This document shows positions 1,957 through 18,584 of a stretch of DNA of 29,281 bases, in pieces; position 1 is the first letter of the stretch; every line of letters starts with the position of its first letter. The DNA is taken from positions 1 to 29,281 of IMG/VR virus record IMGVR_UViG_3300037784_000007; one strand, 5' to 3'. The notes under the pieces were generated by a model. It saw only the letters and a program-made list of their open reading frames with translations, did no database searches and was not told the origin of the DNA. The stretch comes from a virus. Its lineage: Duplodnaviria; Caudoviricetes. The position numbers were made by a program, and so were the translations under genes.

Positions 1957-2309
1957 TAACCTCTCCTTACGATGTACCGAACGGCAGACGCAAAACCGCC
2001 AGCCAAAATCGGGTTAACTTGAATAATGATGTAATCGTTGCCATCAATTCGGACGGTGCCGCCCAAAGAGGCACGGGGCGCAGATGCACCCACCAAAACA
2101 GCCAGATCCGACTGCAAGACAATCTCGTTGTCAGCCCACTTTTGCGCACCCGTCACAACAGCGTTAACTGTGGTGGTCGTGGGCGTAAGTGTGGGAGGCT
2201 CGAACTCAGTAGCGCCGGGCGTGTTCGTGAACGTGACAAACTGTTGACCATCACCGAAACGTGCGGTCAACCTATCTGCCACCTGCCCTAGCCGTTCACG
2301 CAGCGCCAT
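1956..2309 (-). CDS. Head closure / head-tail joining protein
   Basis: 117 aa beta-rich, 'IVLQSDLAVLV...VRIDGNDYIIIQVNPI...YIVRRG'; follows the adaptor, translationally coupled. Confidence 0.7.
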   Translation of the reverse strand: MALRERLGQVADRLTARFGDGQQFVTFTNTPGATEFEPPTLTPTTTTVNAVVTGAQKWADNEIVLQSDLAVLVGASAPRASLGGTVRIDGNDYIIIQVNPILAGGFASAVRYIVRRG

Positions 2310-2794
2310 CAGACAACAAAAGCCGATGTTGACGCGCCATAGAAGTCACGGATAAACGGCCCCAGACAGTCCTCCACCTGACTAAACCGTGGCGTGTTAT
2401 CAATCACAGTGGCTTCTGCAATGCTGTCATCGCTCATCGGCGCATGATACGACACACGCAGCACGTCCACTTGCTCAGACGCAATAGCCCCGCTACCGTT
2501 GTTCGTGACAGCGCCAGACTGCAACGCGGTCGGGTTCTCAGCCCAAATCAGCGCGGCCTCATACGTGGCTTGCTCCACACGTGTGGGGACAGTCGTGTTA
2601 GACACGCCCTGAATGCCGTTGCGAGGCCAAGCGTCGCCATATGGGTCAACAGGCGTTCCCACCCAGCGATCCCAGAAAGCTTTGCCGTTGATGTACTTGG
2701 AAGCCACCGTGCGCGCTACGTCTGGGTCTCCCGTGAAGGTTCTGCCCGTCTCCGCCGCGTAAGATGTCAGTCCTGCGTTTGATCCATATGCCAT
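2309..2794 (-). CDS. Head-tail adaptor (DnaT_2-like family)
   Basis: WPR...VPTRVEQATYEAAL...IASEQVDVLRVSY motif; position in the neck module. Confidence 0.8.
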   Translation of the reverse strand: MAYGSNAGLTSYAAETGRTFTGDPDVARTVASKYINGKAFWDRWVGTPVDPYGDAWPRNGIQGVSNTTVPTRVEQATYEAALIWAENPTALQSGAVTNNGSGAIASEQVDVLRVSYHAPMSDDSIAEATVIDNTPRFSQVEDCLGPFIRDFYGASTSAFVV

Positions 2795-2800
2795 GTTTGC

Positions 2801-2847
2801 AGTATAGACGCATAGGGGTTGACTTGCGAATTAGGGGCGTGTAGGGT
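2801..2847. promoter_or_regulatory. Interlocked divergent promoter pair 1
   Basis: +: TTGACT 2819-2824, 17 nt, TAGGGT 2842-2847. -: TTCGCA 2830-2825, 18 nt, TATACT 2806-2801, then 6 nt and ATG 2794 with no SD. Confidence 0.7.
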
Positions 2848-2875
2848 GATGGTGGATATAGAAGGAGAACACACC

Positions 2876-2965
2876 ATGAAAGAGATTGTAACGGATATGA
2901 TTGGAGCGGCCTGCGTGTTTGCGATTCCGTTTGCGTTTTATTTTATCGCGTGGGGGGTTCAGTAA
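2876..2965 (+). CDS. 29-aa hydrophobic peptide MKEIVTDMIGAACVFAIPFAFYFIAWGVQ
   Basis: AAGGAGA SD, own promoter, one TM-like segment; below the ORF-track cutoff. Confidence 0.7.
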   Translation: MKEIVTDMIGAACVFAIPFAFYFIAWGVQ

Positions 2966-2974
2966 CCCCACCAC

Positions 2975-3003
2975 TTGACCACACCACCAACGCAAGCTAA
3001 CCT
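2975..3003 (+). promoter_or_regulatory. Sigma70-like promoter for a short transcript
   Basis: TTGACC 2975-2980, 17 nt, (GC)TAACCT 2998-3003. Confidence 0.65.
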
Positions 3004-3007
3004 AAAC

Positions 3008-3070
3008 ACACCAACAGAAAGGCGGGTGATCTCTATCTAGGCAGAGGGGGCCAATTTAGGCCCCCTTTGT
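3008..3070 (+). ncRNA. Putative ~60-nt small RNA with extended Shine-Dalgarno-like segment
   Basis: Lies between promoter and terminator; AGAAAGGCGGGTGATC 3016-3031; only a 4-codon GTG ORF. Confidence 0.45.
3044..3070 (+). terminator. Intrinsic terminator (may also stop the converging minus transcript)
   Basis: GGGGGCC-AATTTA-GGCCCCC-TTTGTT. Confidence 0.75.
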
Positions 3071-3074
3071 TGTG

Positions 3075-3263
3075 TTAGACGTTTTTCCACTGGTTGATGT
3101 CCCAATACTGCAGGACTAGTGCGCCCTTGTCCATGACGTATCGCTTGTGCAAACCGTCATCTAGATCCAGCCAGACAATCGCGTCACCTTTGATGTATGG
3201 TGAACCGCCTAATTGGACGGTATCACCTGTGCTAAAGTGGTTCTCTGAAACGTGAAGTGGCAT
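3075..3263 (-). CDS. Small hypothetical protein (head-fibre operon)
   Basis: 62 aa, TAATG-coupled to the 1245-aa gene. Confidence 0.65.
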   Translation of the reverse strand: MPLHVSENHFSTGDTVQLGGSPYIKGDAIVWLDLDDGLHKRYVMDKGALVLQYWDINQWKNV

Positions 3264-6200
3264 TACGTCACCTGTGTTGTTGAGAGGTTTCCAGAGGCGT
3301 CAACGCTTAGCCGCCAGCGCGTATTGTTAGGAGCTACCAGCACAAGTTCCTCACCCAAGTTCACGGCATCACCTTGGCTGTTCTCAGCGCGCAAGGCCAC
3401 GTCGAAGGCCAGAACCGTTTCGTGGGTGTATGTGGTGCTGAACAACCCGAACTGCGGCAATGTAGCGTGGTTTTCAAGGTCTCTGAGGGTTGAATCAATT
3501 GGATTGAAGTCCTCAAAGTTCAGAAAACGTGCATTCTCATCAGCTACCGTGATATGACCGCCAAGGGTTGCACCAAACCACGTCTCATAACTGCGGTTAG
3601 TGTCAATCTCGGTTTGATCACCTACAACAATCAAGTTGCCATTGTCCGCTGGCTTAAACGCAAACACCTGCCAGCCATCACGCACGTTTTCAATCGCGAC
3701 TTGGCGGGTTGTTCCCGGAGTTGCTGGAATAGTGATGGTTTCAGTGTAGGACAGGATCACCTGCACGTCATTGATGGTCGGTAGACCTGCGTTAACGCGC
3801 GCAGTCTCGCTTACACGGATCTGGCGTGTGTTAGGATACCAGCGGACTTCAACGCTTAGGGTTTCGCTGCCATCACTGATGTTGAACGTGGTCGCTGTTT
3901 CAGTTGCACCGCCAACCCCTGCAAGTGTCGCAGAACCCGCGCCAAAGATGTTGCCGTTAGCGTGACCTCGATACTGGATCGTAAGCGTGGTGGAGCTGGA
4001 CGGAATATTGCGAGTAAAGAACAGCTCATCAGCTTCTGGAACCGGAACGCCATTGACAAACGTCAGAGCGGGGATTGTCTGCCAGATACCAGCGCCAGAC
4101 ACTCGCGTTGCAGGTGCCGGATAAACCGTGTTGGTTGTGCTGCTGGCAGGCTGCGCTGGAACGCGGACGTTTACCAGATACTCGCCGTTGATGTAGCTAA
4201 TCAGATCTCGCCCTGTGCTGCCGTCGAACGCAGTGATATAGCTTTGCTGGTTGGCAGGTTGACTAGGAGGGATAAACAGAAGCTTTCTGCGCACCTGATC
4301 GCCAGACAACTCAGACAGCGGCCTAGAAGACTTGCTGCCAGCCGCTCCGGGGTTTTCGTTTGGCTCATAAAACACGGTCTGAGTTGTGTTAGATGCGCCC
4401 GCGAGTTGCCGGTTGTAGTCAGACGGTCCAACGGTAGGCGTACTTTCCTCTGTGACGCTGGTGTTGTTATCCAAAACGTCAACAACCGCGTCTGGCAAGT
4501 TAAGCGCAGCGTGGGAAAGCTCTGCGTCAATACGCTCGATGTCATCTTGCAGGTTCTCGATATCGTTAGCCCAAGCCACAACCTGATGACTCTGGACGCG
4601 CTCAACTTCAAACCTGTTGCCAACTGTGACGCTGGTGATGCGATAGACAAACCAAGCCACACCGCTATCGGTAAAGCTTTGGATTACCTCTACATTCGGG
4701 GAGGCGTTGTCTAGCGCCACATCCGAGCTAGTGGACAAATTGCGCAGGATGAAATCGCCCGGCTCAGGAACTGCTACAAACAGAACAACTGTCGTCGCTT
4801 GGAACACCGGGTTGTTTGCAGGTACAGTCGCGAAGTCCGCAAGGCTGGATGGGTAAGTGCTGGTTGCAGACCCAGAGAAGAACCGCGCATCAACAACAGG
4901 CGTTTGCGTGACCACATTGGCATATGGAGACAAGCGGTCCTGAATGCTGTCGTAGGTCACACCTTGCGGAGGAATAGCCCGGTTCAGCTTTTCTTGTACG
5001 TCAGCAGACAGCTTACCCTCAACAACAGACTGGTCGGGAATGTTCTGCGTCACATCAACAGAGTTTGCATCCATGCGGAAATGCCGCTGGACCTGCGTCA
5101 GCCAGATTTCAATGGTTGCCAGAAACGGATAGTTGACGCTGGTGCTGCGCGTATAATGGCGAACTGTGCTATTGGTGAATGTGGCATCGTCAACAAACGT
5201 GAAGTCGTCTTCAAGGTTCCAACTTTCAATTACATTGCGCTCATCGTCATAGATCCTGATTTCGATATCGCGCGGATTATGACCGCTGATAAAGTTGGGT
5301 GTAATACCGAGCGTGATATAGTTGTTGAAGCGATTGGTGCCGACCTGAAACTGACCCATTGCATTGCGGTTTTCGCGTCCACCCACATAGGGATAGTTGT
5401 CGCCGGGACGTGGGTTGCTAGGGTCCGTAGATGGCGTCAGGAACGGCGCTTCTGCAAGCGGATTCTCAGACAGCCACACAAGCGCGTCGTTAGCCAGCAT
5501 GGACACGGGCGCTAGATCAACACGGTTGTCAATCTCGGTGATCTGGGCAAGGAAGTTACTTTCCTCACGACTGAAGCGCTGAATGTCATTCCGGTTAAGG
5601 ACAAACCAGTTGTTGCCATCCGTCCAGCTCGTAAATGCGTCGGCGGTCCATACAACGTAGTCGCCATCATAGATAACGCGGTCACTAACGCCAGAATCAA
5701 GCAAGCCTTGACGCAGTGTGCCATCATTCGGGTTGGACCCAATGACAGGGAATGCGTAGCCTTTCTGCACTTGAACGCCAGACGGCAAGAAGGAAAGATC
5801 GCTGTTGTTCCACGATACGTTCTGAAGAACAACCTCGCCAAAGGTTGGGATTGGATCTCCTGATTGCTGGACCCCCAGCCGTTCCCAAATGCCAATGTTG
5901 CCGCCTGTCCGAGTAATCCTGAATGTTGCCGATGTACCTTGCGCCAGCGTCACCGGAATCTCATTGCGATTAAACAGGGCGCTAACAGATGGGGCGCGGA
6001 TGGTAAGGGAGTTGCGAACAACGGACTGAGAGCTGCCGCCCCGATACCCAATGGTGATTGTGAACTCTTGTGCAACGCCCCGCGACTGCAGGTCATCGAA
6101 CATAGATGTCAGTTCACTGATGTCCGGAAGCTCAAACGTGTAGTTGCCATTACTTGCGGCAGTGCCTTCGAGAGATACCGATTGCCTCCCACCATACCAA

Positions 6201-7000
6201 ACGGCTTGGTTCCCATTCGTACCGTAGCTGGCAAAGAAGCTTCCAGAGAACGTGCGTACATCAGCCCCGATGCCCGTGTTGTCCAGCCTCTCCAGCGCGG
6301 TTTGCACATCCGACACGCCTGACAGAACACCAGTGGCGTCATCGTCTGAGAAGGACACCATAGCTGCAGACACCATGCCGGGCGTGCCGCCGTTGGTCAT
6401 GAGCGCGTCAACAACAGCAGCCATCGCCTGCGTATTTGTGACGCTGGCAAGCATACCCGTGAAGCCACTATTATCAATCTTGATCTGCCCGCCACTAGTT
6501 AGGGTGCCGTTAGCAGAAGCAATGGAGAAGGGAACAATGCGCGGGTTAGTCAGGCGCATGAAGCTGTTAGCTTCTCGCAGGGTCGTGATATCACCGAACT
6601 GAATGGACGCGGCTTCTACTGCAAACCCCTCTGGCGCAAGCAGGTCGCCATTAGGTAGGAGCTGCACACCGGAGTCGCCAAAAGTGCCATCGGATAGCTT
6701 GTACGGCACATGCCCAACAGAGACGCCAGACAGTGATGCCACCTCACCTGCTGGACCCGTTACGACATTGGTAACGTCGTTCCATGCTGAGTTGAACCGC
6801 TGGAAATACGTGAACGGGCCACCACCGGACCCGACGCGCACCAGCAAGAACTGATCGCCATCGTAATTCGTAAGCCACGCGGGGTTGTTGGTTGCATAGG
6901 TGTCGCGATCACCCGTGGTGGCAAATTCGTTTTGCTCTGGACCAAGGCGAAACCCAGCCCCACCCCCGCCACGTGCACCACCAAAGCGGAATGAAGTCAT
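3263..7000 (-). CDS. Large structural protein, putative head fibre/spike
   Basis: 1245 aa, T/S/N/G-rich beta character, short coiled coil (DIENLQDDIERIDAEL), C-terminal LVLVAPNNTRWRLSVDASGNL fibre-type motif; between capsid and adaptor. Confidence 0.7.
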   Translation of the reverse strand: MTSFRFGGARGGGGAGFRLGPEQNEFATTGDRDTYATNNPAWLTNYDGDQFLLVRVGSGGGPFTYFQRFNSAWNDVTNVVTGPAGEVASLSGVSVGHVPYKLSDGTFGDSGVQLLPNGDLLAPEGFAVEAASIQFGDITTLREANSFMRLTNPRIVPFSIASANGTLTSGGQIKIDNSGFTGMLASVTNTQAMAAVVDALMTNGGTPGMVSAAMVSFSDDDATGVLSGVSDVQTALERLDNTGIGADVRTFSGSFFASYGTNGNQAVWYGGRQSVSLEGTAASNGNYTFELPDISELTSMFDDLQSRGVAQEFTITIGYRGGSSQSVVRNSLTIRAPSVSALFNRNEIPVTLAQGTSATFRITRTGGNIGIWERLGVQQSGDPIPTFGEVVLQNVSWNNSDLSFLPSGVQVQKGYAFPVIGSNPNDGTLRQGLLDSGVSDRVIYDGDYVVWTADAFTSWTDGNNWFVLNRNDIQRFSREESNFLAQITEIDNRVDLAPVSMLANDALVWLSENPLAEAPFLTPSTDPSNPRPGDNYPYVGGRENRNAMGQFQVGTNRFNNYITLGITPNFISGHNPRDIEIRIYDDERNVIESWNLEDDFTFVDDATFTNSTVRHYTRSTSVNYPFLATIEIWLTQVQRHFRMDANSVDVTQNIPDQSVVEGKLSADVQEKLNRAIPPQGVTYDSIQDRLSPYANVVTQTPVVDARFFSGSATSTYPSSLADFATVPANNPVFQATTVVLFVAVPEPGDFILRNLSTSSDVALDNASPNVEVIQSFTDSGVAWFVYRITSVTVGNRFEVERVQSHQVVAWANDIENLQDDIERIDAELSHAALNLPDAVVDVLDNNTSVTEESTPTVGPSDYNRQLAGASNTTQTVFYEPNENPGAAGSKSSRPLSELSGDQVRRKLLFIPPSQPANQQSYITAFDGSTGRDLISYINGEYLVNVRVPAQPASSTTNTVYPAPATRVSGAGIWQTIPALTFVNGVPVPEADELFFTRNIPSSSTTLTIQYRGHANGNIFGAGSATLAGVGGATETATTFNISDGSETLSVEVRWYPNTRQIRVSETARVNAGLPTINDVQVILSYTETITIPATPGTTRQVAIENVRDGWQVFAFKPADNGNLIVVGDQTEIDTNRSYETWFGATLGGHITVADENARFLNFEDFNPIDSTLRDLENHATLPQFGLFSTTYTHETVLAFDVALRAENSQGDAVNLGEELVLVAPNNTRWRLSVDASGNLSTTQVT

Positions 7001-7260
7001 GAGCGCTCACCTTCAATCATTGCGGCGTCTACCCCCTCCGCCAGCATGTAGATATCAACAGAGTCAGAGTTGCGCTCATAGAAGTCATCAAACGTGACAT
7101 ACTGCGTCTCACCCGTGGCAGGCACACTGTCTCCCACGTCAACCACAACCACACGGACGCGCTCAACGCTGCGTTCGACGCACGAAAACTGGCTGACATT
7201 GCTGCCAACCAGAGTGTACGTTGCGGTGTTGATAGGTTCTCGGAATGTCCTAATCGCCAC
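6997..7260 (-). CDS. Small putative structural protein
   Basis: GTG at 7260 just after the upstream stop with GAGGTG SD; ATGA overlap with the next gene. Confidence 0.65.
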   Translation of the reverse strand: MAIRTFREPINTATYTLVGSNVSQFSCVERSVERVRVVVVDVGDSVPATGETQYVTFDDFYERNSDSVDIYMLAEGVDAAMIEGERS

Positions 7261-7261
7261 C

Positions 7262-7609
7262 TCACACCTCCAACAGGCTTGCAACCAAACCAGTGCTGGA
7301 TGTCATCGCAATGGTGCCAGAGAGATACGAGCGAATGTCACGCAACTCCAAAACAACCGTGGTGCCATCAGCGATAGACGGCATGGTAAAGCCGCCTGAC
7401 AGGTCCACAGATCCTACACCATCAACGGACTGCGATGTTGCGTCTGCTCCTGTGATGTTGGGTGCTAGTGCGCCGCCTGTGCCGTTGCGAAGGATGAGGT
7501 ATTGTGTGACGTTGGGTTTGTATGTGAATGTGTCGTTGCCGTCCAGCGTGGTCTCAGCCACAGCGACAGACGTAAGCGATTGCAGGGATGTAGGGGTAAT
7601 CGTTGCCAT
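7262..7609 (-). CDS. Small beta-rich virion protein (possible fibre base)
   Basis: 115 aa MATITPTS..., AGGA SD, T/S/G-rich. Confidence 0.7.
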   Translation of the reverse strand: MATITPTSLQSLTSVAVAETTLDGNDTFTYKPNVTQYLILRNGTGGALAPNITGADATSQSVDGVGSVDLSGGFTMPSIADGTTVVLELRDIRSYLSGTIAMTSSTGLVASLLEV

Positions 7610-7638
7610 GATCGGTCCTGTTTGGTGGGTTTGCTTGG

Positions 7639-7686
7639 ATTATAGCACAAAGGGGGTTGACGTGGTATGTAGGGAGGTGGTAGAGA
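7639..7686. promoter_or_regulatory. Interlocked divergent promoter pair 2
   Basis: +: TTGACG 7657-7662, 18 nt, (TGG)TAGAGA 7681-7686. -: extended -10 TGcTATAAT (TATAAT 7644-7639), poor -35. Confidence 0.65.
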
Positions 7687-7711
7687 GGTGGTGGATATAA
7701 GGAGAGATGAG

Positions 7712-7843
7712 ATGGACTGGATTGTCAAAGATGATTGCGGGGTTACTGTCGCAGAGTTCCGCTGGAAAGATCACGCAGAGTTGTTTATTGCTGCTGAACT
7801 TGCTGCTGTGGGAAATTGTCTTTTTCTTTTTGAGAGAAAATAG
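7712..7843 (+). CDS. Hypothetical protein, 43 aa (MDWIVKDDCG...LFERK)
   Basis: AAGGAGAG SD; stop abuts the SD of the next gene. Confidence 0.6.
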   Translation: MDWIVKDDCGVTVAEFRWKDHAELFIAAELAAVGNCLFLFERK

Positions 7844-7854
7844 GAGGCCACCCC

Positions 7855-7968
7855 ATGACCCAACCCGAACAAATCTACCACTTAGCCGCTATAATGCGGA
7901 GAATGGGACGGCATAGCGTGGCTGTGCGACTTGAACGTAACGCTAAGGCATTGGAGGAATTCAAGTGA
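7855..7968 (+). CDS. Hypothetical protein, 37 aa (MTQPEQIYHL...EEFK)
   Basis: AGGAGG SD; GTGA overlap with the next gene. Confidence 0.6.
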   Translation: MTQPEQIYHLAAIMRRMGRHSVAVRLERNAKALEEFK

Positions 7969-8093
7969 TCTACATCGCCAACTCAAAAACATGGCAGCCT
8001 ATTATCAGCCACTGTGACCACTTCTACCTTGCGCGCGACGTGGATGGCGTTATGGTGTATGTGATTAAAGATGGACAGGAGCAAGTGAGATGA
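7965..8093 (+). CDS. Hypothetical protein, 42 aa (MIYIANSKTW...EQVR)
   Basis: GGAGG SD, GTG start, ATGA coupling to 8090. Confidence 0.6.
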   Translation: MIYIANSKTWQPIISHCDHFYLARDVDGVMVYVIKDGQEQVR

Positions 8094-8416
8094 GTGATAT
8101 GACTGACACAAGTAAAGAGGCGGTGGAGCGCTGGTGCAAGCAACGCGGTAAGCTTTTGACGAACCCTCCCCAGACGCCACCAGAAGTTAAAATGCTGCTC
8201 GCCCTCCTATCCGAACGCGACGCCCTCCGCGCCCAGCTGCAGGCGGCACGGGATGATGCGCTGGAGGAGGCGCTTGACGCGGTGATAAAAAATGCCCCGC
8301 ATTTCGGCCCGGAAGGTCCTGCGACATCAGAAGAATATGGGGAAAGTGAGGGTTTCCGCATTGCAGTCCAGACCATCCGCGCCCTCAAGTCCACCTGCAA
8401 CGGAGAGGGCCAATGA
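8090..8416 (+). CDS. Hypothetical phage protein
   Basis: 108 aa, 'DTSKEAVER...LLSERDALRA...ARDDALEEA...IRALK' pattern of small alphaproteobacterial phage proteins; AGGAG SD. Confidence 0.75.
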   Translation: MSDMTDTSKEAVERWCKQRGKLLTNPPQTPPEVKMLLALLSERDALRAQLQAARDDALEEALDAVIKNAPHFGPEGPATSEEYGESEGFRIAVQTIRALKSTCNGEGQ

Positions 8417-8529
8417 CAACGCATGAAGCCATATGTGGCCTCTTGTTTACAATATGACACCATAAGAGGCCACTTGATGCCTACTAACAACGTACTGCTA
8501 TTTGAAGTGACCTAGCCAGGAGATGAGAG

Positions 8530-8721
8530 ATGAAAGCATACCTGTCATACCAAGACGACTACGAAACCGGCGCTGAACTGATTGGAGTGTTTGAGACTCT
8601 CGATCAAGCAATGGAAACCAAATACCCTGACTGTGTTGAGATGTGGGATGGATGTGAGCTGAAAAAGAGATGGTGCCGAAAGCGATACAAAGACGATTGG
8701 GAAGAAAAGAAAGTATGGTAA
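8530..8721 (+). CDS. Hypothetical protein
   Basis: 63 aa, AGGAG SD, followed by a terminator. Confidence 0.7.
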   Translation: MKAYLSYQDDYETGAELIGVFETLDQAMETKYPDCVEMWDGCELKKRWCRKRYKDDWEEKKVW

Positions 8722-8728
8722 CCCCACA

Positions 8729-8760
8729 GCGCATCGGCTCAGGTCGGTGCGTTTTTCTTT
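8729..8760 (+). terminator. Intrinsic terminator
   Basis: GCGCATCGGC-TCAG-GTCGGTGCGT-TTTTCTTT. Confidence 0.8.
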
Positions 8761-8779
8761 GCGAGTGTGCATTTTCTTG

Positions 8780-8808
8780 TTGACGTCCTGTCCGTTTGGA
8801 CTTATACA
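8780..8808 (+). promoter_or_regulatory. Sigma70-like promoter
   Basis: TTGACG, 17 nt, TATACA. Confidence 0.7.
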
Positions 8809-8849
8809 GGTTTCAGAGAGAGGGCACAGTGCCCAGAGACAGGAGAAAG

Positions 8850-9038
8850 ATGATGGAAAAGAAACTGAATGCCTACATTGTAAACGTTTTTTATGGACTT
8901 GATGAGTACCCAACAAAACAAAGGATCGTTTACGCTGAGAACGCTGATAAAGCTAAAGAGATTGATGCGTTCAATAATCCCGCCGAACATGAAACAGGCT
9001 CTACATATTCAGCGGTTGTCGCTGGGTATCTCGGCTAA
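8850..9038 (+). CDS. Hypothetical protein, 62 aa
   Basis: Start moved to ATG 8850 (AGGAGA SD; track start lies inside the promoter). Confidence 0.7.
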   Translation: MMEKKLNAYIVNVFYGLDEYPTKQRIVYAENADKAKEIDAFNNPAEHETGSTYSAVVAGYLG

Positions 9039-9066
9039 TAATAACCCCTCACTACACCCCACCCAC

Positions 9067-9095
9067 AAAAAAAACGGGGCCACACCGGCCCCGTC
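9067..9095 (-). terminator. Intrinsic terminator (probable ancestral capsid terminator)
   Basis: ACGGGGCC-GGTGT-GGCCCCGT then T run on the minus strand. Confidence 0.85.
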
Positions 9096-9108
9096 TAATT
9101 CTATTCAC

Positions 9109-9146
9109 CCACCCTTAGGTGCGGGTACCACGCAGCAAGGTGCCGG
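9109..9146 (-). repeat. Orphaned duplicate of the capsid gene 3' end (GTLLRGTRT*)
   Basis: 9109-9129 identical to 9940-9960 (21 nt); adjacent codons synonymous with the capsid end. Confidence 0.9.
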
Positions 9147-9809
9147 TCAGTTATCGTACCCAATTTCTTTATGCCAATCGTCAGGATGTTTTGCCCCTTT
9201 GCTCATATTGCAAGTGGGGCACAAGCACTGCAGATTGTCAGGCCAATTACTGCCACCCAATGCTAGTGGCATGATGTGGTCAACGTGGTAGCCTTCGGAT
9301 AAATCTACCTCGCAATAAACGCACAATCCACCTTGAGAATCATAGATAGCTCTAACATCTTCGGCTGTGTGCTTTCCCTCTGCGTTCTTTTTCGCAGCCT
9401 TTCTGGTGCGGTCTAAGGCGCGTTTCTTATCAGGGTGTCGTTCTACCCACTCACGCGTTCTTTTCTTGCTGTACTCTCTGTTCTTGCTATTGTAGTATTT
9501 CCAGTAGGCCGCCGTAGACCCGTAGCCTTTTTCTATGATTCCCCTTATGTATTGATAGTACTCTTTTCCACCCATGTCTTCACGCCATTCTTTAGAAGCA
9601 TTTCTGGCTCTCTCTGCATTCTTGGGGTCAGATCTGTACTTTGCATTTGCTATGCGGTTGCACTCAAGGCACTCGCACCTTTTTGTCACGCGCTGCTCAA
9701 CGTGACCGTGCTTGCAAGGCTTGCCCGTAAAGTACCTATCAAGGCCCAGTTTAATTGCGTCCGCGCGCTTGACAACAGGTCCGTCATACAATACTTGAAT
9801 ATCAGTCAT
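9147..9809 (-). CDS. Free-standing HNH homing endonuclease
   Basis: RYFTGKPCKHGH...CLEC N-terminus; CVYC...YHVDHIMPLALGGSNWPDNLQCLCPTCNMSK. Confidence 0.92.
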   Translation of the reverse strand: MTDIQVLYDGPVVKRADAIKLGLDRYFTGKPCKHGHVEQRVTKRCECLECNRIANAKYRSDPKNAERARNASKEWREDMGGKEYYQYIRGIIEKGYGSTAAYWKYYNSKNREYSKKRTREWVERHPDKKRALDRTRKAAKKNAEGKHTAEDVRAIYDSQGGLCVYCEVDLSEGYHVDHIMPLALGGSNWPDNLQCLCPTCNMSKGAKHPDDWHKEIGYDN

Positions 9810-9894
9810 AGCATGTTTCTCCAGTGCTGTGATAGGGCGGGATTGCAGGCGTTGCCGCGCCTCTCCCGTCTGCTTAATATAGTGCTGATCGTGA

Positions 9895-9922
9895 AAAAGT
9901 AAAGGGGCCGAAAGGCCCCCTT
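9895..9922 (-). terminator. Intrinsic terminator after the major capsid gene
   Basis: AAGGGGGCC-TTTC-GGCCCCTTT-ACTTTTT. Confidence 0.8.
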
Positions 9923-9945
9923 GGTTCTTTAGTAATGTTCCACCC

Positions 9946-10983
9946 TTAGGTGCGGGTACCCCGAAGGAGAGTTCCAGGTCTTTGGCAGTAGTACAAGGGA
10001 TAGCTATGCATGTGGTACTTCACGAAGCGCGGGGTATCGCGGAATGCGTTGTCCAGCTCCTGAATTGCATATGCCGACTGACCGGGGGTGTTGACAAACG
10101 GCATGTATTCGTCAGCCGGTGCCATTGCCTTGACAAAGATGTCACGACCGCCCACAACGAAGAACCGTGCATCGTTGGTCGGGATTGCCACCTCAGAGTT
10201 GTCATCCGAACCACGGTAGTTGTGGAACATGATGTCGCCAAACTGGAAGGTGCCAAACGCGCCGGAGTCCATACGCAGGTTAGCCGCTGCGTTGTAGTTC
10301 AGGTAGTAGTCACGGACACGCGGGTGAGTAACCAGAGCATCCCAGAACGCATCACCAACAAGCGCGTGCACCTGCGAGCGACCCGGAACCCAACCACCCT
10401 TAGCAGCACGCTGAATGGTACGGTTGACTTGGTTACAGATCGTAATAACGTCTGTGGTGTCAACGTCCAGCTCAAACGATACGTCTGCGTTGGGGGTGAT
10501 GTTGAACTCGGTAAAGTAGTTGTACAGAACCGAACCGTCGCCGGGGTTCATGGTCATACCTTGGATTGCGCCAAGACGCAGATATTCCTCGGTGTATTCC
10601 ATGTTCTGGCGCATTTCCATCAGACGGCGCGCGACTTCACGCTGCACGGTCATCAGTTCGTTTTCGGTGCCAGACTCACGCAGACCCGCAACCTCAGCGG
10701 CCCAAATGGTGTCCTGCTGGGCAAGACGCGGGATTTCGAAGTTGATGGCGTCACGGGTGTAACGCTCGTTCTGATCCGGGTTAGAGCCGCGCGCAGAGAA
10801 CGGGATAAGCTCCAGTTCGTAGGTGCTACGGTCAATGAAAATGTCTTTCTGCCGAACCGGGCGATCCTCAAAGAGGTTCATGCCACCCAGCATCTGAGGC
10901 AGGTAATCCATGCGTTCGACCATGCTCGAAAGCTCGGTCATGTTGAACGCGTCTGGATTGCGGAAGACGTCCATAGTTGCCAT
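9946..10983 (-). CDS. Major capsid protein (lambda gpE-like, HK97 fold)
   Basis: 345 aa; 'F..TELS..V....YLPQ.LG.MNLF', 'YTEEYLRLGAIQG', 'LYNYFTEF', 'SYPLYYCQRPGTL'; follows the decoration gene. Confidence 0.93.
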   Translation of the reverse strand: MATMDVFRNPDAFNMTELSSMVERMDYLPQMLGGMNLFEDRPVRQKDIFIDRSTYELELIPFSARGSNPDQNERYTRDAINFEIPRLAQQDTIWAAEVAGLRESGTENELMTVQREVARRLMEMRQNMEYTEEYLRLGAIQGMTMNPGDGSVLYNYFTEFNITPNADVSFELDVDTTDVITICNQVNRTIQRAAKGGWVPGRSQVHALVGDAFWDALVTHPRVRDYYLNYNAAANLRMDSGAFGTFQFGDIMFHNYRGSDDNSEVAIPTNDARFFVVGGRDIFVKAMAPADEYMPFVNTPGQSAYAIQELDNAFRDTPRFVKYHMHSYPLYYCQRPGTLLRGTRT

Positions 10984-10998
10984 TGTTAAATTCCTCTA

Positions 10999-11358
10999 TT
11001 AATCGCGGACAAGGATGCCAAGCGCAAGCAGAGCCGCGTCAAGTTCAGCATCAGTGCCGTCGTATGTCAGTTTGTACCGCTTGGCCTCTGCGTCACGGGT
11101 GATCACGGTGCGGGTTTGGGTCTGACCTGCATCAACGCCATAAGCCAGAATGCCAGCCGCAGTCTCAGAGCCGTCAGAAGCATCACCGTCCCACGGCACA
11201 GCGTCACCGCCCACGATTGCATAGACCTGACCCGGCAGGATGCGTGCACCAGCCCAGTCAGTGGTGGAATCGAACTCCTGAGTGTCGCGCGACCGATGGC
11301 CGTTTGCCTCGGACTGCAGGAACTCTAGCGTGCGGTCCTGTTCGGTAAGAATAACCAT
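10999..11358 (-). CDS. Head decoration protein (lambda gpD-like)
   Basis: EFLQSEANGHRSRD...DGSETAAGIL...RDAEA...L.ALGILVR. Confidence 0.88.
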   Translation of the reverse strand: MVILTEQDRTLEFLQSEANGHRSRDTQEFDSTTDWAGARILPGQVYAIVGGDAVPWDGDASDGSETAAGILAYGVDAGQTQTRTVITRDAEAKRYKLTYDGTDAELDAALLALGILVRD

Positions 11359-11360
11359 TC

Positions 11361-12482
11361 TTATTTATCCTTCTTCTCTTTAAACATGCCGTCCCATGCG
11401 CTGAACCGACCGTCTTTCTTCATTCGGTCGCGCTTCTTCATGCGGTCACGCTTTTTCATCATCATTTCGTCCTCGTCCTCGTCTTCTTCATAACGATCAC
11501 CGAGAACATTTCGGGCACTGTCATCAACCTTCATGACGCTGAAGATGCCCTTAATTTCTGCGTCGGATACGTGGGCCGCAGCAGCCTCGTCGCCATATAC
11601 AGCGCGCACAGTATCGCGGCGGATCTCGGAGACGGTCTTACCCTTGGTTTCCACGCCGTCAGCCATCTTGGCAGCTTTGCGCTCAACAGAGGAACGCTCC
11701 GCAACGAGGGCTTCAATCTCAGCATCGGACAGGATTTTCTTTGCAGTATCGGCGCACTCTGCTTTAAGCTCGCCAATGGTGGTATCTTTGTCGGCAAGCT
11801 TGGCTTCCAGCGCTTCAATAGCGGCTTTCTGATCCTTCATAGCTTGCTCGATCACTCGTGCGTCAGAGGCGGCAACCTGAACCGCTGCATCCCCGACGAC
11901 AATGGTCTTCACATCCATTTTGACCTCTTTGTCTTGGATTACGGGCGTTGCGCCCCAGTTATGCACACCATCACCGATGCGCGCTTCAGATCCGGCCCTT
12001 GCATCTGTCACTAGGGCCAGATGGTTAAACCGAATATCCTTCATCACCTTGTCATAAGGCGCGTCGTCAGGGGCATCGACCAGATTGGCCGTGTACCCCA
12101 TTGAAATCTCTCTATGCGTGGTCTGTGCCGCCTTAACCCCCTTGGAGTCCTTGACGATCAACGGCGCAACCAGCCATTCGCCCTCACGCAGCACTCCCTC
12201 ACCAGTCTCACCCACAGCCAGCGTTGACCAATTCTCAGCATCAACCGGCTGATCAGGATGGCCCACAGTGACAGGCGCATGTGTCAGGCTAGACATTGCG
12301 TCCGACGCGAAAACCTCTTCAGGCGGGCGATACACACCCACCATCCGATCACCCATCATGCCAAGCTCTGACGCGTGGTACATCTGCACACCCGTTCGCG
12401 CGATCCGGGACATAGCCACAAGATAGCCGTCCTCGGTATTGCGCACAGTGCCGACAGTGGCGTTGTCCTGAAACTTAATCAT
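11361..12482 (-). CDS. Head maturation protease/scaffold (DUF2213 family)
   Basis: TEDGYL...IARTGVQMY...VYRPPEEVF...PVTVGHP...EISMGY...NHLALV..ARAG; start revised to 12482 (alternative 12488). Confidence 0.88.
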   Translation of the reverse strand: MIKFQDNATVGTVRNTEDGYLVAMSRIARTGVQMYHASELGMMGDRMVGVYRPPEEVFASDAMSSLTHAPVTVGHPDQPVDAENWSTLAVGETGEGVLREGEWLVAPLIVKDSKGVKAAQTTHREISMGYTANLVDAPDDAPYDKVMKDIRFNHLALVTDARAGSEARIGDGVHNWGATPVIQDKEVKMDVKTIVVGDAAVQVAASDARVIEQAMKDQKAAIEALEAKLADKDTTIGELKAECADTAKKILSDAEIEALVAERSSVERKAAKMADGVETKGKTVSEIRRDTVRAVYGDEAAAAHVSDAEIKGIFSVMKVDDSARNVLGDRYEEDEDEDEMMMKKRDRMKKRDRMKKDGRFSAWDGMFKEKKDK

Positions 12483-12488
12483 GGTCAT

Positions 12489-12532
12489 ATGGTATGCGAG
12501 GGGTTGACTTTGCGCAAATGAGGGAGTAGGTA
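12489..12532. promoter_or_regulatory. Interlocked divergent promoter pair 3
   Basis: +: TTGACT 12504-12509, 17 nt, TAGGTA 12527-12532. -: TTGCGC 12517-12512, 17 nt, TACCAT 12494-12489, then 6 nt and ATG 12482 with no SD. Confidence 0.7.
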
Positions 12533-12559
12533 GGGGTGGATTTAGAGGAGAGATGTGAG

Positions 12560-12796
12560 ATGGATTATCCCAAAAAACGAACAGTAAGATGGATTGACGA
12601 CGACACTGGCGAAGAGGTTGGATCTTGCGAATACATCCGCGCCGAACTGTATAACGAACTGCTGCGGGCTGCGGATAAGTTGGCGGATCACGTAGAGGCT
12701 GTAGCGGAATGGATGCGGTCAAACGGTTATGATGATGACGCCGATATATCCGCCCTCACCGCATACAAAAAAGCAAAGGAAACCACCAATGACTGA
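12560..12796 (+). CDS. Hypothetical protein, 78 aa
   Basis: GAGGAGAG SD; 'EYIRAELY' motif; start revised. Confidence 0.7.
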   Translation: MDYPKKRTVRWIDDDTGEEVGSCEYIRAELYNELLRAADKLADHVEAVAEWMRSNGYDDDADISALTAYKKAKETTND

Positions 12797-13088
12797 TCCG
12801 AAATTCACACCGGGGCCTTGGGAGGTTAAGTACAAAAACGGGGAGACACAATTGCTAATGAGCGATGGTGATATTCATATGTGCAACATGCACTACTACC
12901 CGTGGGTTCCTGAAAACGATGCTGATTGGCACCTCATCGCAGCCGCACCGGATCTGTATGAGGCGTTGGAGGCCGTACTGTCGTCAATTCCAGATATGGG
13001 CAATTATTATGACGGGGCAGAAGATGCCTTCGAGCAAGCCCGCACCGCCCTCGCAAAAGCCCGTGGCGATCACTCTTCCTCGGACTGA
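12789..13088 (+). CDS. Hypothetical phage protein (TPGPW...LIAAAPDLYEAL family)
   Basis: AAGGA SD, start revised to 12789; overlaps the portal 3' end by 19 nt. Confidence 0.8.
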   Translation: MTDPKFTPGPWEVKYKNGETQLLMSDGDIHMCNMHYYPWVPENDADWHLIAAAPDLYEALEAVLSSIPDMGNYYDGAEDAFEQARTALAKARGDHSSSD

Positions 13089-14359
13089 TCCAGATCCAAA
13101 CCACCGGCGTATTCCTCGGCTGCATTCTCAAGTCCGGGGGATACACCTGCTTCTGTCAGCTCGTTGACGATCTGCTTGTACGCCAGCTCTTCAGGGAAGA
13201 TGCCCGCGCCCACTGCGTCAACGTATTTCTTGACAATCATGTTGCCGATCTCAGCCTTGGTTTTGTCGTCAATCTGATACAGCGACCGCCAGTTGTAATG
13301 GATCTCAGGCGGGATTGACCCCAAAGCCGTCTTGACTGTCATCGCATCCAACACGCGCATCTCTGGCTGCAGGTCGTTCTCCTGAATAGCCGAGATGATG
13401 TCGTAGTAGTTGCGGATCTCCATCTCACCAGTTGCGCCCAACCCACCAGCAGACGTGCCAAACAGCATGGCACGCGGCATACGTGCAGCACCAGACGCAG
13501 CGATCTGAAAGCGGTCAATGATGTCAGGGATGCCCGCGAAGGACATGGTTTTCTGCTCCCACTCCTCATCCTCCATATCAAGGATAAGAGCGCCATTGGT
13601 GGCCTTGGTACGCATAGCCAGCTCTAGCTTGCGCTGAATGGCCTCCAGCTCTGTGGGGTCGGTCACGCGCTGCATCAGGTTGTTGATCTTCATCACATCA
13701 ACCTTGGCTTCCATAATCATGTCAGCAATGTTCGCCATCGCCGCATCAAACCCACGCAGGTCGTCATACATGGACTGCAGCACCGACTCTCCGAACCGAT
13801 TGCGCACGTTACCATACTGACGACGCCGCTTGCCCACGAAATGGACAATACGGCTTGGGTGTACGTTCAGCAGCTCTTCCTGTGCGCCTAGTAGGTCGTA
13901 TTCACGCGGTCGGCCATAATACTCCGACATAGGGTCATACGTATATTCGCCCTCACTGATCTGCCATCGGTCCAGCTTACGGACATATCGCAAAGGCGGC
14001 GCACGCTCAGGCACAAGCGGCGTAGTGGGGTCTTCACCGTTATCCATGAAGATATACCCGTCACCAAACAGGCGGGCGTCAATAAACCCCTCTCGGATCG
14101 TGCGCTTAATGTCTAGGTCGATCTCTGTGGCCTCAATAGCGCTGATCTGGTCGTCTTCTGCCTGCCATTCGCGCCACTGTGCTGTGGCGTGTTGGGCTGG
14201 CATATCGATTACCCGCGCGATCAGGCTTGACCCCTCATACGCAGCAAGGAAGTCCCTATCTTGGAACTCCCGGCGTTGATACGTGGTGGACTTGAACTTA
14301 GACCGAGGTTCAGCCAGTCCAGCCACAGCAAGTGTGAGGGTGTCGTTAAATGTGGTCAT
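13070..14359 (-). CDS. Portal protein (DUF1073 family)
   Basis: Y..S.LIARVIDMPA..AT..WREW, ARLFG, VHPSRIVHF, FG.SVLQ, GAARMPRAMLFGTSAGGLGATGE.EIRNYYD; start revised to ATG 14359. Confidence 0.9.
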   Translation of the reverse strand: MTTFNDTLTLAVAGLAEPRSKFKSTTYQRREFQDRDFLAAYEGSSLIARVIDMPAQHATAQWREWQAEDDQISAIEATEIDLDIKRTIREGFIDARLFGDGYIFMDNGEDPTTPLVPERAPPLRYVRKLDRWQISEGEYTYDPMSEYYGRPREYDLLGAQEELLNVHPSRIVHFVGKRRRQYGNVRNRFGESVLQSMYDDLRGFDAAMANIADMIMEAKVDVMKINNLMQRVTDPTELEAIQRKLELAMRTKATNGALILDMEDEEWEQKTMSFAGIPDIIDRFQIAASGAARMPRAMLFGTSAGGLGATGEMEIRNYYDIISAIQENDLQPEMRVLDAMTVKTALGSIPPEIHYNWRSLYQIDDKTKAEIGNMIVKKYVDAVGAGIFPEELAYKQIVNELTEAGVSPGLENAAEEYAGGLDLDQSEEE

Positions 14360-14366
14360 GGGTGGT

Positions 14367-14410
14367 TGTGTAGTTGGGGTGTTGACACGTGGCAAATGGG
14401 CGGCTATGTA
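14367..14410. promoter_or_regulatory. Interlocked divergent promoter pair 4
   Basis: +: TTGACA 14382-14387, 17 nt, TATGTA 14405-14410. -: TTGCCA 14395-14390, 17 nt, TACACA 14372-14367, then 7 nt and ATG 14359 with no SD. Confidence 0.7.
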
Positions 14411-14436
14411 GGGGGTGTGTAAAAGGAGATAGAATT

Positions 14437-14616
14437 ATGAAAATTGAAGTCGGAAAAACATACATTTCAAACGATGGGTGTGAGTATACAATTACATCTG
14501 AGCGTGAACCCAATGTTTTCCACGATGGCATGGGGCATACATGGTCCGAGGATGGTAAGTTTTACTCGTGCTACGAAGATGGAAACCCGTCTTATGATTT
14601 AATTCAAGAAGCTTGA
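14437..14616 (+). CDS. Hypothetical protein, 59 aa (MKIEVGK family)
   Basis: AAGGAG SD; resembles the N-terminus of 18585..19109. Confidence 0.75.
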   Translation: MKIEVGKTYISNDGCEYTITSEREPNVFHDGMGHTWSEDGKFYSCYEDGNPSYDLIQEA

Positions 14617-14641
14617 CACACCCCGCCACCTAGGCTATGTG
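14613..14641 (+). promoter_or_regulatory. Sigma70-like promoter
   Basis: TTGACA (contains the upstream stop), 17 nt, (GC)TATGTG. Confidence 0.65.
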
Positions 14642-14666
14642 TGATGCAGGATAAAGGAGAGATGAG

Positions 14667-14825
14667 ATGTATGAGATTGCAACTGCGCTTGCTATGTGGT
14701 TTGTGTTTTCTATTTGGACAAGCGACGGGATGATGAACCTATCAGTCAAGTTTACGTTTTTATCACTAGCGATATGGGGAACAATTCGGGCCGCAGAATT
14801 ATTCGGTTACGTTATCACCACCTAA
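14667..14825 (+). CDS. Small membrane protein, 52 aa (MYEIATALAMWFVFSIW...GYVITT)
   Basis: AAGGAGAG SD; two hydrophobic segments. Confidence 0.65.
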   Translation: MYEIATALAMWFVFSIWTSDGMMNLSVKFTFLSLAIWGTIRAAELFGYVITT

Positions 14826-14866
14826 CCCCGCCCATCGCGGCATGTAATGAATGGAGGAATGAAAAG

Positions 14867-15040
14867 ATGATTGACACTGTAATCGTGGTGTGAGATAGAA
14901 ACGGATCGTACTTTCAAACATGGACATCAAATTATAATGGTGACGGAATTGCCCATGGAAGAATTATCGCTAGTAAAATAGGCGGAACATATAAGGTTGT
15001 TACCGCAAAAGAGGAGACCAAACAATTACCCTGTCATTAA
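14867..15040 (+). pseudogene. 57-codon gene with in-frame TGA at codon 9
   Basis: GGAGG SD; MIDTVIVV*DRNGSYFQTW...KQLPCH; frame stays open 48 codons past TGA 14891-14893. Confidence 0.5.
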
Positions 15041-15076
15041 ACGCTTCTACAAGGGTGACACAGTGGCCTTGGAGTT

Positions 15077-16441
15077 CTAAACAGCCGCAGCCCAGCTTCT
15101 AGTCTCTTTAACGGGACAGTAAGCCATAATAAAGGCGTCCGCGATATTCGGGGATGCCACATCACGTTTAGCAAGATCCTTCTTGCTCTCCACCTTACTC
15201 CGCCCTGATGGATCATAGTCCTTGTGAGGTGTACTGAGTTCGGTGATAAGCTTCTCCAGCTTGTCTACATTGGGGTCAATACTGATGATCTCGGCGGGGT
15301 CACATTCCACCCCCTGCGTTACCCACATGTGCGTCTTGCGCAACCTGTCAGCCACGTTCCACCATGATTGAGCCTTGAGGTTGGCAAACTGGTCCTTGTT
15401 CTTGATGCGTGTCCCGCGCAGGTATTCACGGTCGGGCCACAGAACCTTTCCACCAGCGTTAAACGAGCGGTAATAGATCTGTTCCTTGTGCTGCTGGTTT
15501 AGCTCCTTGAACTTGGCACCAGCCGATGCGCCAACCCCGATGCTGTCATAATCAATCGACGCCCCATCATCACGGGCGCGCGTCCATACACGTGTGGCAG
15601 ACTTAAGTAGCTCATCCTCTAGGCCCTTCCACTCCTCAACGTGCTTGAGCAGCTGACCATGTGTGACGCACATAGCGTTAAGGTCGCCACCATCGTCCGC
15701 AACGTCAAACCCGATGCGCCTAGAGCCTGCAATGTCAACGCCTAGCTTGATATGTGCATTGACCGCAGACTGTACCCACGTGCGCTTGATAATGGCTTGA
15801 TCGTCGTCGTTAAGGGGTTCGCCTAGGTAAACGTGATTGTAGTCGTCTGGCGAGGTGCGTTTTAGCTCCTCAATGTCCTCAATAAGCGTTTGAGACAGGA
15901 AAGGGTTGTCGGTGTAGTTGATCTTCTGGACAAGGGCGTTGTTCGGCGGGTCAGCAACAAACCGCTGGTACACGAAGTCAGTGACCAGACGGGGATTGAA
16001 GATGATGTAGATCTCCGACCCCTCTTTACGAATTGTCGGGCCTAGGATCTCCCACATGTCCTTGGTAAGTGAGTGCGCTTCCTCAATCCACAGGATGTCA
16101 ATGCCTTCAAGGGACTTGATTTCATCCGTGTTGCGCGCCAGACCGTAGAACAGGAACTCAGAGCCTGTCACCTTGTGGATGATCTTAGCCTTCTGAAACT
16201 CAAACTCATGCGCGACGCCGAACCGCTCAGCCTGCGACTTGATGAGGTTGTAGACCGATTCTTCTAGCTTGTTCTGGAACATCCGGGTGCAAAGGATGCG
16301 AACCTTGGTGAACCGAGCAATCCGCACGGTGTTAGCCGCAGCATCCCAAGACTTAGAGGATGCGCGACCACCGTACAGGATTTTGTAGCGTGATGGTGTT
16401 GCCCAGAATGAGCGCAACACCGGGTTCATGGATGCGGTCAT
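15077..16441 (-). CDS. terL: Terminase large subunit (PBSX-type)
   Basis: Walker A YGGRASSKS, Walker B ILWIEEA, PTIRKEGSEI, nuclease GFDVADDG and SPNIADA. Confidence 0.95.
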   Translation of the reverse strand: MTASMNPVLRSFWATPSRYKILYGGRASSKSWDAAANTVRIARFTKVRILCTRMFQNKLEESVYNLIKSQAERFGVAHEFEFQKAKIIHKVTGSEFLFYGLARNTDEIKSLEGIDILWIEEAHSLTKDMWEILGPTIRKEGSEIYIIFNPRLVTDFVYQRFVADPPNNALVQKINYTDNPFLSQTLIEDIEELKRTSPDDYNHVYLGEPLNDDDQAIIKRTWVQSAVNAHIKLGVDIAGSRRIGFDVADDGGDLNAMCVTHGQLLKHVEEWKGLEDELLKSATRVWTRARDDGASIDYDSIGVGASAGAKFKELNQQHKEQIYYRSFNAGGKVLWPDREYLRGTRIKNKDQFANLKAQSWWNVADRLRKTHMWVTQGVECDPAEIISIDPNVDKLEKLITELSTPHKDYDPSGRSKVESKKDLAKRDVASPNIADAFIMAYCPVKETRSWAAAV

Positions 16442-16887
16442 GCGTCATCCGCAGACAAGTCATCAATATCCTTAGGAGGCATCCACGTGATCCTCGCCTT
16501 TACCCACTCCGCTCGCTTAGACGCCTGCCTGATCTCATCTGCCATGCAAGGATCAAGCTCTGCCAACTCATCCTCATCCCACTTTGGCATATTTAAGGCA
16601 GAGCGATACTTCTTCTTGTAGTGAGCCCTGACCTTACCCCTGCGCTCAGACACTGAAAGAATAGGGCTATCATTCAACACAGAATTACACTCACCACAGG
16701 ATGGCAGTTTGAGGAAGTCAAGCTTTTCCTTAGCCCTGTCGTTTAGCATATTGGTCAAACTAAGCGGCGGAACGTGATCCAAAGACTCCGCTGGAATGCC
16801 ACAATAGACGCAGAACCCATAACGATCCCCCACAGTGGTATACAGGTGGTCATAAAGAGCCTCCAGTGTGTCCCTCCATTTACTCAT
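16438..16887 (-). CDS. HNH endonuclease between terS and terL
   Basis: CVYCG...LDHVPPLS...SCGECNSVLND. Confidence 0.85.
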   Translation of the reverse strand: MSKWRDTLEALYDHLYTTVGDRYGFCVYCGIPAESLDHVPPLSLTNMLNDRAKEKLDFLKLPSCGECNSVLNDSPILSVSERRGKVRAHYKKKYRSALNMPKWDEDELAELDPCMADEIRQASKRAEWVKARITWMPPKDIDDLSADDA

Positions 16888-18583: not shown

Positions 18584-18584
18584 A

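Follow-up and report, generated by a model that had tools for sequence, protein, structure and literature searches.

The DNA analysed here (the window) is an entire virus record, the 29,281-bp fragment IMGVR_UViG_3300037784_000007, in which minus-strand structural genes are interrupted by plus-strand cassettes of small genes, with predicted promoters of the two strands crossing at the boundaries. The minus strand carries genes for the terminase large subunit, portal (13070–14359), DUF2213 protease, decoration protein, major capsid protein and an HNH nuclease, then four genes without a family match, and a head–tail adaptor and a head closure gene. The protease, decoration and major capsid genes form one unit (9946–12482, minus strand), closed by a terminator at 9901–9922. 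To the right of the structural block lie primase, Sak4, SSB, exonuclease and helicase genes. A sequence-only reading of this DNA had divided the structural genes into portal, protease–capsid, head-fibre and neck units, each separated by a plus-strand cassette from the unit upstream, and had proposed a repeated either/or early-to-late promoter toggle at the junctions. PHROGs matches confirm the identities of the portal, protease, decoration, capsid, adaptor and head closure genes. The genes of the supposed head-fibre unit (115, 87–95, 1245 and 62 amino acids, aa) are present, but the name could not be verified, as they gave zero family or PDB matches; for the 1245-aa protein, PDB, Pfam and PHROG searches all returned no match.

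At each of four junctions, a plus-strand TTGAC element lies inside the spacer of a predicted promoter on the opposite strand. TTGAC was confirmed at 2819, 7657, 12504 and 14382, each followed 17–18 nt on by a TA-hexamer (TAGGGT, TAGAGA, TAGGTA and TATGTA at junctions 1 to 4), and a small plus-strand open reading frame (ORF) led by AGGAG begins 25–28 nt beyond each hexamer. The minus-strand -10 boxes are where the sequence-only reading had put them, at 2806–2801 (TATACT), 7644–7639 (TATAAT), 12494–12489 (TACCAT) and 14372–14367 (TACACA). Two minor points of its minus-strand promoters need correcting: the -35 of junction 1 fits better as TCGCAA with a spacer of 17, and junction 2 has no good -35. 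The G-run that it had described ahead of TTGAC stands directly before three of the four elements, the one at 14382 being preceded by GGGGTG; the run is not kept in relatives, which are often A-rich in that stretch, and we rejected it as a conserved element.

Three of the junctions share one architecture. At junction 1 (2794–2847), the predicted late-type, leaderless promoter of the head–tail adaptor (minus strand; GC/TTTGC box, defined below, at 2824–2836, -35 TCGCAA at 2829–2824, ATG at 2794) is crossed by an early-type plus-strand promoter (TTGACT 2819–2824, TAGGGT 2842–2847). Junction 3 (12482–12532) pairs the leaderless late-type promoter of the DUF2213 protease (minus strand; box 12512–12524, TTGCGC, TACCAT, ATG 12482) with TTGACT 12504–12509 and TAGGTA 12527–12532 on the plus strand, and junction 4 (14359–14410) pairs that of the portal (minus strand; box 14390–14402, TTGCCA, TACACA, ATG 14359) with TTGACA 14382–14387 and TATGTA 14405–14410. 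At junction 2 (7609–7686), the minus-strand late promoter is of the extended -10 type (TGcTATAAT, 7647–7639); it is leadered, serves the 115-aa gene, lacks the TTTGC box and is crossed by TTGACG 7657–7662 with TAGAGA 7681–7686. Since the minus-strand -10 sits only 6–7 nt before the ATG of the adaptor, protease and portal genes, and these ATGs have no Shine–Dalgarno (SD) sequence, the three mRNAs would be leaderless. The predicted opposite starts lie 57–61 bp apart, and promoters at that distance would not accommodate two polymerases at once, given the footprint of the enzyme. The interlock pattern occurs 6 times in positions 1–19,500, against a mean of 0.27 and a maximum of 2 in 300 Markov shuffles, the six matches being the four junctions and stand-alone plus-strand promoters at 2975 and 14613; a GGG..TTGAC-N-TA pattern occurs 4 times against 0.06 in shuffles, and both patterns were written after the sites had been seen.

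We observed the same arrangement among relatives. An alignment of 40 proteases retrieved 191 loci, where a search with a single protease had returned nothing. In 29 clade loci, promoters were scored upstream of the portal, protease, post-capsid, adaptor and tail tube genes, and 56 of the 64 resulting rows were used (6 had a weak late promoter and 2 no upstream gene). A reverse TTGAC was present at 25 of 30 structural promoters that face an opposite-strand ORF, compared with 6 of 26 cassette-free promoters and 519 of 5302 background windows; with a TA box at 17 or 18 nt required, the counts became 22/30, 3/26 and 88/5302. The corresponding p-values (~1e-5) overstate independence, as the rows are related and cassette presence was called by a simple ORF caller. 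The offset of the reverse TTGAC from the late -35 was +6 in 13 of the 25 overlaps (TTGCCT-GTCAA), at different genes, the others being +5 (1), +9 (3), +29/30 (5) and +39/43 (3). The protease lacks a cassette in most close relatives and still has a predicted leaderless promoter, within the last codons of the portal gene, from which it follows that the predicted structural promoter predates the cassette. Promoters of the same class occur at cassette-free protease, post-capsid and tube junctions. On these sequence comparisons, the predicted arrangement is real and clade-wide. In one relative (L028, ~7990–8070), a tRNA-like sequence, recognized by eye, fills the slot upstream of the portal promoter in place of a protein cassette.

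The two sets of promoters fall into distinct classes. The early class, found at cassette and replication genes, reads TTGAC-N17/18-TA, mostly lacks a T at -7 (-7T) and is followed by a strong SD sequence. The late class, found at structural units, reads SSS-NN-W-T-T(T/C)GC-N2-N17-TAnnnT and is often leaderless. When late promoters were re-picked with no reward for -7T or leaderless spacing (44 of the 64 rows), -7T was present in 36 of 44 late promoters, compared with 13 of 50 TTGAC promoters and 75 of 311 control sites. The GC box (SSS-NN-W-T-TYGC) stood upstream of the -35 in 39 of 44 late promoters and, among the cassette-free ones, in 17 of 18; of the control sites, 55 of 311 had it. In a gene-blind count over 19 clade loci, the structural strand had 47 sites and the other strand 6, as opposed to 7 and 8 in 23 loci outside the clade. 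Where the two promoters of a pair overlap at the common offsets, the box falls within the early spacer. Within the window, the motif matches junctions 1, 3 and 4, where the box lies within the spacer of the early promoter, the terminase-small promoter, and minus-strand positions 19407, 6688 and 2000, whose meaning is doubtful. A conserved, class-specific site abutting a non-consensus -35 is a feature of class II-type activation, and it is seen here except at junction 2. In the gap between primase and Sak4 (21780–21830), a back-to-back TTGACA pair that does not cross forms an early/early counterpart of the junctions.

The terminase-small promoter (17355–17408, minus strand; box from 17390, TTGCGT-17-TATGTA) is a late type that stands alone, with no TTGAC partner. 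It is built into an arm of the terminator that closes the upstream early unit and serves as an internal control. The box is thus conserved in three sequence contexts, namely coding sequence, a terminator arm and the early spacer. The sequence-only reading had made occlusion by the plus promoter the main timer of the structural genes; since the same late class stands alone at 17390 and at most relatives' protease promoters, such occlusion, on the predicted promoters, cannot by itself time it, and the class would need a control of its own. Most sigma-70 promoters of Alphaproteobacteria have no -7T, and it has been proposed that they need CarD (PMC8407463); by this measure, the early class resembles host promoters, unlike the late class.

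Gene content behind the junctions varies while the promoter pair is kept, as a synteny check suggested by the sequence-only reading revealed among near-identical phages. Contigs of eight runs were aligned to the region; one (X4) gave no joints, and joints at 80% likeness with short sides may stem from other organisms. The first gene of cassette 2 is absent in X5, X6, X7 and X9, with the promoter pair retained, and in X9, X12 and X13 the first gene of cassette 3 is absent or has another in its place. After 14420–14423, X6, X12 and X13 have new sequence, as does X6 after 2862, and in X7 the window's 12560 gene stands behind the junction 4 promoter. The exchange points fall directly behind the promoter pair, and the only repeats among the copies are short families of 23–26 nt with 69–85% identity. 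X6, X11 and X12, from three studies, carry a cassette-free junction 3 allele with a promoter in the portal end (TTGGCT-17-TAACAT-6-ATG), the X11 joint resting on a 3.9-kb contig with 84 letters on its short side. The window's portal gene retains at its 3' end only the -35 (TTGGAT) of that promoter and not its -10; by this comparison, the junction 3 cassette is an insertion that displaced the predicted promoter embedded in the portal end and brought a new one. Early-region genes of the window have homologs in relatives' cassettes, and the homolog of one cassette gene lies upstream of a head module, on the structural strand. Because genes swap behind the pair and are common to early regions, the cassettes are, on the sequence evidence, slots for an exchangeable pool of putative early genes.

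All four cassettes lie on the plus strand. Cassette 1 (2876–3071) comprises a 29-aa ORF, a second TTGAC promoter at 2975, a short gene-less unit and a hairpin terminator at ~3040–3071; the unit at 2975–3071, with ~60 nt between the promoter and the strong hairpin and no ORF in between, may be all that is left of a lost gene, or else a small RNA, and an Rfam search of the window gave no match. Cassette 2 (7712–9096) has six small SD-led ORFs (7712, 7855, 7965, 8090, 8530 and 8850), an internal terminator (8728–8753), a second promoter (8780) and a minus-strand terminator (9072–9096). Cassette 3 (12560–13088) has ORFs of 78 aa and 99 aa (phrog_1273) and ends within the final codons of the portal. 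Cassette 4 (14437–15040) holds a 59-aa ORF, a second promoter at 14613, a 52-aa ORF and a short SD-led ORF (14867–15040) that meets an in-frame TGA after 8 codons and is probably a pseudogene. The 25-nt leader before the latter (14834–14858), which has no fold, is identical in the relative G001 (L199, 4179–4203), where it precedes a different gene, and is possibly an exchange point. The cassette gene 14437–14616 and the early-region gene 18585–19109 begin with the same N-terminal type (MKIEVGK...) and apparently belong to one mobile small-domain family. We found no convincing regulator family among the cassette genes, one ABATE match falling below the cut-off.

Hairpins are located at the end of cassette 1, in the middle of cassette 2, after the HNH gene, after the capsid gene and before terminase small, where they close the early unit. 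No terminator hairpin was found where cassette 3 meets the portal gene or cassette 4 meets the terminase large gene, which would allow transcription to read through antisense from either side at these ends. The GC content of the cassettes (43–51%) compares with 53–55% for the structural genes and 49–51% for the replication and plus-strand early genes. The HNH gene (9147–9809, in the region 9109–9975) lies between exact 21-bp copies of the capsid gene end and is missing from X5 and X9 (joint 9146–9982), which suggests a mobile homing nuclease.

No close cultured relative was found for the window, the best identities being at most 38% for the portal, 46% for the capsid and 49% for the helicase. 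By Pfam, the complete relative G001 (49,753 bp, with terminal repeats) has a gene for a phage tail terminator and none for a sheath; it additionally encodes RNR, ThyX, dUTPase and a sliding clamp. Its early region carries ectoine synthase, ParB-N and DUF3440/PAPS-reductase-like genes at 6740–9791, perhaps a DNA-modification block. Neither a tyrosine integrase (PF00589) nor sigma region 2 was found in G001 (100% complete), G002 (99%) or G003. The clade consists of uncultured aquatic siphophages that are probably lytic. Among plasmid records, the G001 clamp is nearest to that of Paracoccus (43%), which points indirectly to a host that is probably alphaproteobacterial. The window's DNA was found in pond metagenomes, and close relatives occur in seawater, aquaculture and sediment runs; among the public runs listed as containing it, none was of RNA.

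The window also encodes a candidate regulator. This 129-aa protein (18063–18452, minus strand) belongs to an early-type unit with a TTGACA promoter at 19170 and is core to the clade, being 60–69% conserved in most close relatives, with 55 matches among cluster representatives. Its predicted fold is a winged helix (pLDDT 78) whose best matches are AspA and MarR-type regulators, and its sequence gives weak MarR/PadR profile matches; the structure libraries point to no specific phage activator, and no match was found among 50,697 phage records. A profile detects the protein in the window, G001, G002, G003, L010, L012, L018, L028 and L052, and in 8 of the 9 motif-bearing genomes or loci with the protein, its gene is located just upstream of the terminase genes. 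It was not found by profile search in any of 10 complete virus records outside the clade nor in Jedunavirus KpV79; 5 of 34 records were positive in all, most negative clade records being fragments that end before the region. In a tree of the proteases, all positives fall to the same side of one branch (98/95). L033, a provirus within the clade that is 88% complete, has neither the protein nor, at its protease, the motif. Given its modelled fold and matching distribution, we regard the 129-aa protein as a candidate late activator.

Could one phage protein turn on the late promoters and, from the same site, turn off the early promoters that cross them? As complete relatives encode no sigma factor, the sigma-70 polymerase of the host, likely an alphaproteobacterium, would read both classes. 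On entry, polymerase would occupy the TTGAC promoters, thereby masking the weak late promoters, and at junctions 3 and 4 unterminated early RNA would extend, as antisense, into portal and terminase. The winged-helix protein, itself an early product, would then bind the GC/TTTGC box beside the late -35 and recruit polymerase in the manner of a class II activator, while its position in the spacer of the early promoter would shut the cassette off. The junctions would at the same time offer sites where interchangeable early genes can insert. In its general form, a one-way early-to-late switch whose single activator also keeps polymerase off the overlapping early promoter, we would give this explanation an even chance of being right. 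The fuller version is put forward more tentatively, as a possible design: the winged-helix protein itself would run a distributed switch, with the box as both late activator site and early operator, and the interlocked pair would be a portable module by which a lytic phage could place any early gene among its virion genes and silence it in time, the unterminated early RNA silencing portal and terminase beforehand. Of the earlier proposal, two closely overlapping promoter classes and a phage factor fit the comparative data, but the term toggle was too strong, one-way passage being likelier. Nothing was found of a bistable switch of the lambda PR/PRM type, since an integrase was not detected in G001–G003 and the cassette genes are variable and without a convincing regulator family.

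Several observations weigh against the one-way switch. Its geometry varies (+6, +9, +29/30, +39/43), the overlap is missing from 5 of 30 cassette junctions, the rows come from related phages and are not independent events, and the score used for picking late promoters had itself fixed T-T(T/C)G(C/G) and TA. The box is missing at junction 2, the matches at 17390 and 19407 coincide with terminator arms (a GC stem and a T run) and may be mimics, and the host control for the box is weak and of low power, since 400 kb of Henriciella offered 13 intergenic sites, with matches at 3. The host assignment itself goes back to the sliding clamp of a relative. Scanning with a generic E. coli sigma-70 consensus recovered 1 of the 8 junction promoters and showed no enrichment overall (11 sites compared with 15.1), so the signal is invisible to the E. 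coli consensus. Because protein and motif mark one clade, their co-occurrence is close to one event, and winged-helix proteins can serve other jobs. Some of these points would be expected if both classes were real and their overlap had no regulatory job, reverse cassettes surviving only at unit boundaries where the promoters are squeezed together and timed separately. The several geometries, the non-overlapping junctions and the common stand-alone late promoters agree with such compact packing, as does the finding that symmetric promoter elements commonly drive transcription both ways (Warman et al., bioRxiv 10.1101/2020.01.31.928960). On the other hand, overlap is the rule (25/30), a single offset being favoured across different genes, the pair stays in place where its neighbouring genes have been lost or replaced, and a spacing of 57–61 bp would impose steric exclusion whatever its origin. 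We consider packing alone unlikely, though it has to be taken seriously.

A flip acting on the polymerase is a still less likely explanation. An AsiA-, gp39- or P7-like phage protein, or a factor that removes the help of CarD, would silence TTGAC promoters lacking -7T and free those with -7T or an extended -10, the box being a mere extended -35 preference. The clean -7T split and the extended -10 of junction 2 are consistent with this, as are the stimulation by CarD of promoters without -7T in Rhodobacter (PMC8407463) and the sparing of extended -10 promoters by phage proteins that displace sigma region 4 (PMC7403470). However, it leaves unexplained why the box is conserved in coding, terminator-arm and early-spacer contexts, most late promoters retain a TTGC -35, and no AsiA-like inhibitor was identified; a polymerase-directed factor could also work together with the activator. 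The sequence-only reading had offered, as its own alternative, morons with a back-promoter, that is, foreign inserts in one operon whose outward promoter restores downstream expression. This describes junction 3 in outline, where X6, X11 and X12 have the cassette-free allele and the window's pair has the +9 offset of portal junctions, and the lower GC content of the cassettes relative to the structural genes points the same way. As a general rule it fails and we hold it to be improbable: structural promoters of the same class stand at cassette-free junctions, no integrase was found in the complete relatives, and the cassettes match the phage's replication and early genes in GC content and share genes with early regions. 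Finally, the minus-strand matches might not be promoters at all, one upstream promoter reading the structural genes through the cassettes. The absence of a detected terminator hairpin at junctions 3 and 4 would permit read-through, and the generic scan misses most sites. Against this stand the portal, protease and adaptor starts without SD and with a -10 6–7 nt upstream (15 of 17 rows for the protease), the strong terminators after the capsid and HNH genes, and the strand bias of 47 to 6, which together make it highly improbable.

To our knowledge, many lytic phages of 45–50 kb have no polymerase or sigma factor of their own, and the timing of their late genes is mostly unexplained. The clade described here supplies a defined promoter class and a candidate activator family that has no cultured representative. 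If correct, the one-way switch would explain the tolerance of reverse-strand ORFan blocks between head and tail genes, a layout also seen in KpV79. If the -7T split matters, the timing of the phage would be tied to the CarD dependence of alphaproteobacterial promoters. A ~60-bp switch flipped by one protein would, furthermore, be a useful engineering part for these hosts.

Activator-dependent phage promoters are familiar from Mu Mor/C and lambda CII. The predicted control is like that of T4 MotA/AsiA, in which a phage DNA-binding protein redirects sigma-70 polymerase at, or next to, a poor -35 (PMC7403470), but the 129-aa winged-helix family is unrelated, and its predicted site would also block the opposite promoter at at least four junctions. 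Morons such as HK97 gp15 are likewise units with their own promoter among morphogenesis genes (Cumby et al. 2012, PMC3594210). All four cassettes have such a promoter by sequence (TTGAC-N17/18-TA with SD), and terminator hairpins were found at cassettes 1 and 2 and none at 3 and 4; whereas morons are expressed from repressed prophages, the present phages have no detected integrase, and their cassettes draw on the phages' own early gene pool and face a conserved late promoter. Bidirectional bacterial promoters also have divergent starts and overlapping elements (Warman et al.), but they share a -10 and their starts lie 7–25 bp apart, whereas here the -35 regions cross at 57–61 bp; a few relatives, with offsets of +39/+43, approach the shorter spacing.

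Jedunavirus KpV79 (NC_042041) and related phages with DUF1073 portals and DUF2213 proteases come close in layout. In the annotated KpV79 record, the portal, protease, neck and tail genes are separated by blocks of small reverse-strand genes with predicted promoters, and a reverse TTGAC lies just ahead of three starts. KpV79 differs in being a myovirus of enterobacteria with another promoter grammar, no GC/TTTGC box at its protease and no winged-helix homolog. Inverted TGAC...GTCAA repeats occur in it (L206; 445, 5466, 7541, 13105–13133 and 24660–24690) near the terminase small, head morphogenesis and protease starts, which suggests that Jedunaviruses may use a different, palindromic operator. 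In the literature searched, outside of which most subscription papers fall, we found no description of interlocked early and late promoters at structural junctions; four papers (PMC2771037, PMC3391216, PMC5795418 and PMC4331800) report alternating clusters or unknown ORFs among head genes and not the interlock. The PeSL cassettes of the T4-type phages RB49 and phi1 (Arbiol et al. 2010, PMC2839356) are alike in placing sigma-70 early promoters before shuffled small ORFans, a few of them inside virion modules. They combine a one-directional promoter with a stem-loop, whereas at the present junctions an early promoter and a late one on the opposite strand interlock; consensus early promoters before ORFans mark the exchanges in the window as well, but the near-identical repeated copies of PeSLs are missing. 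By analogy, then, the system would resemble activator-dependent late control combined with PeSL-like gene shuffling.

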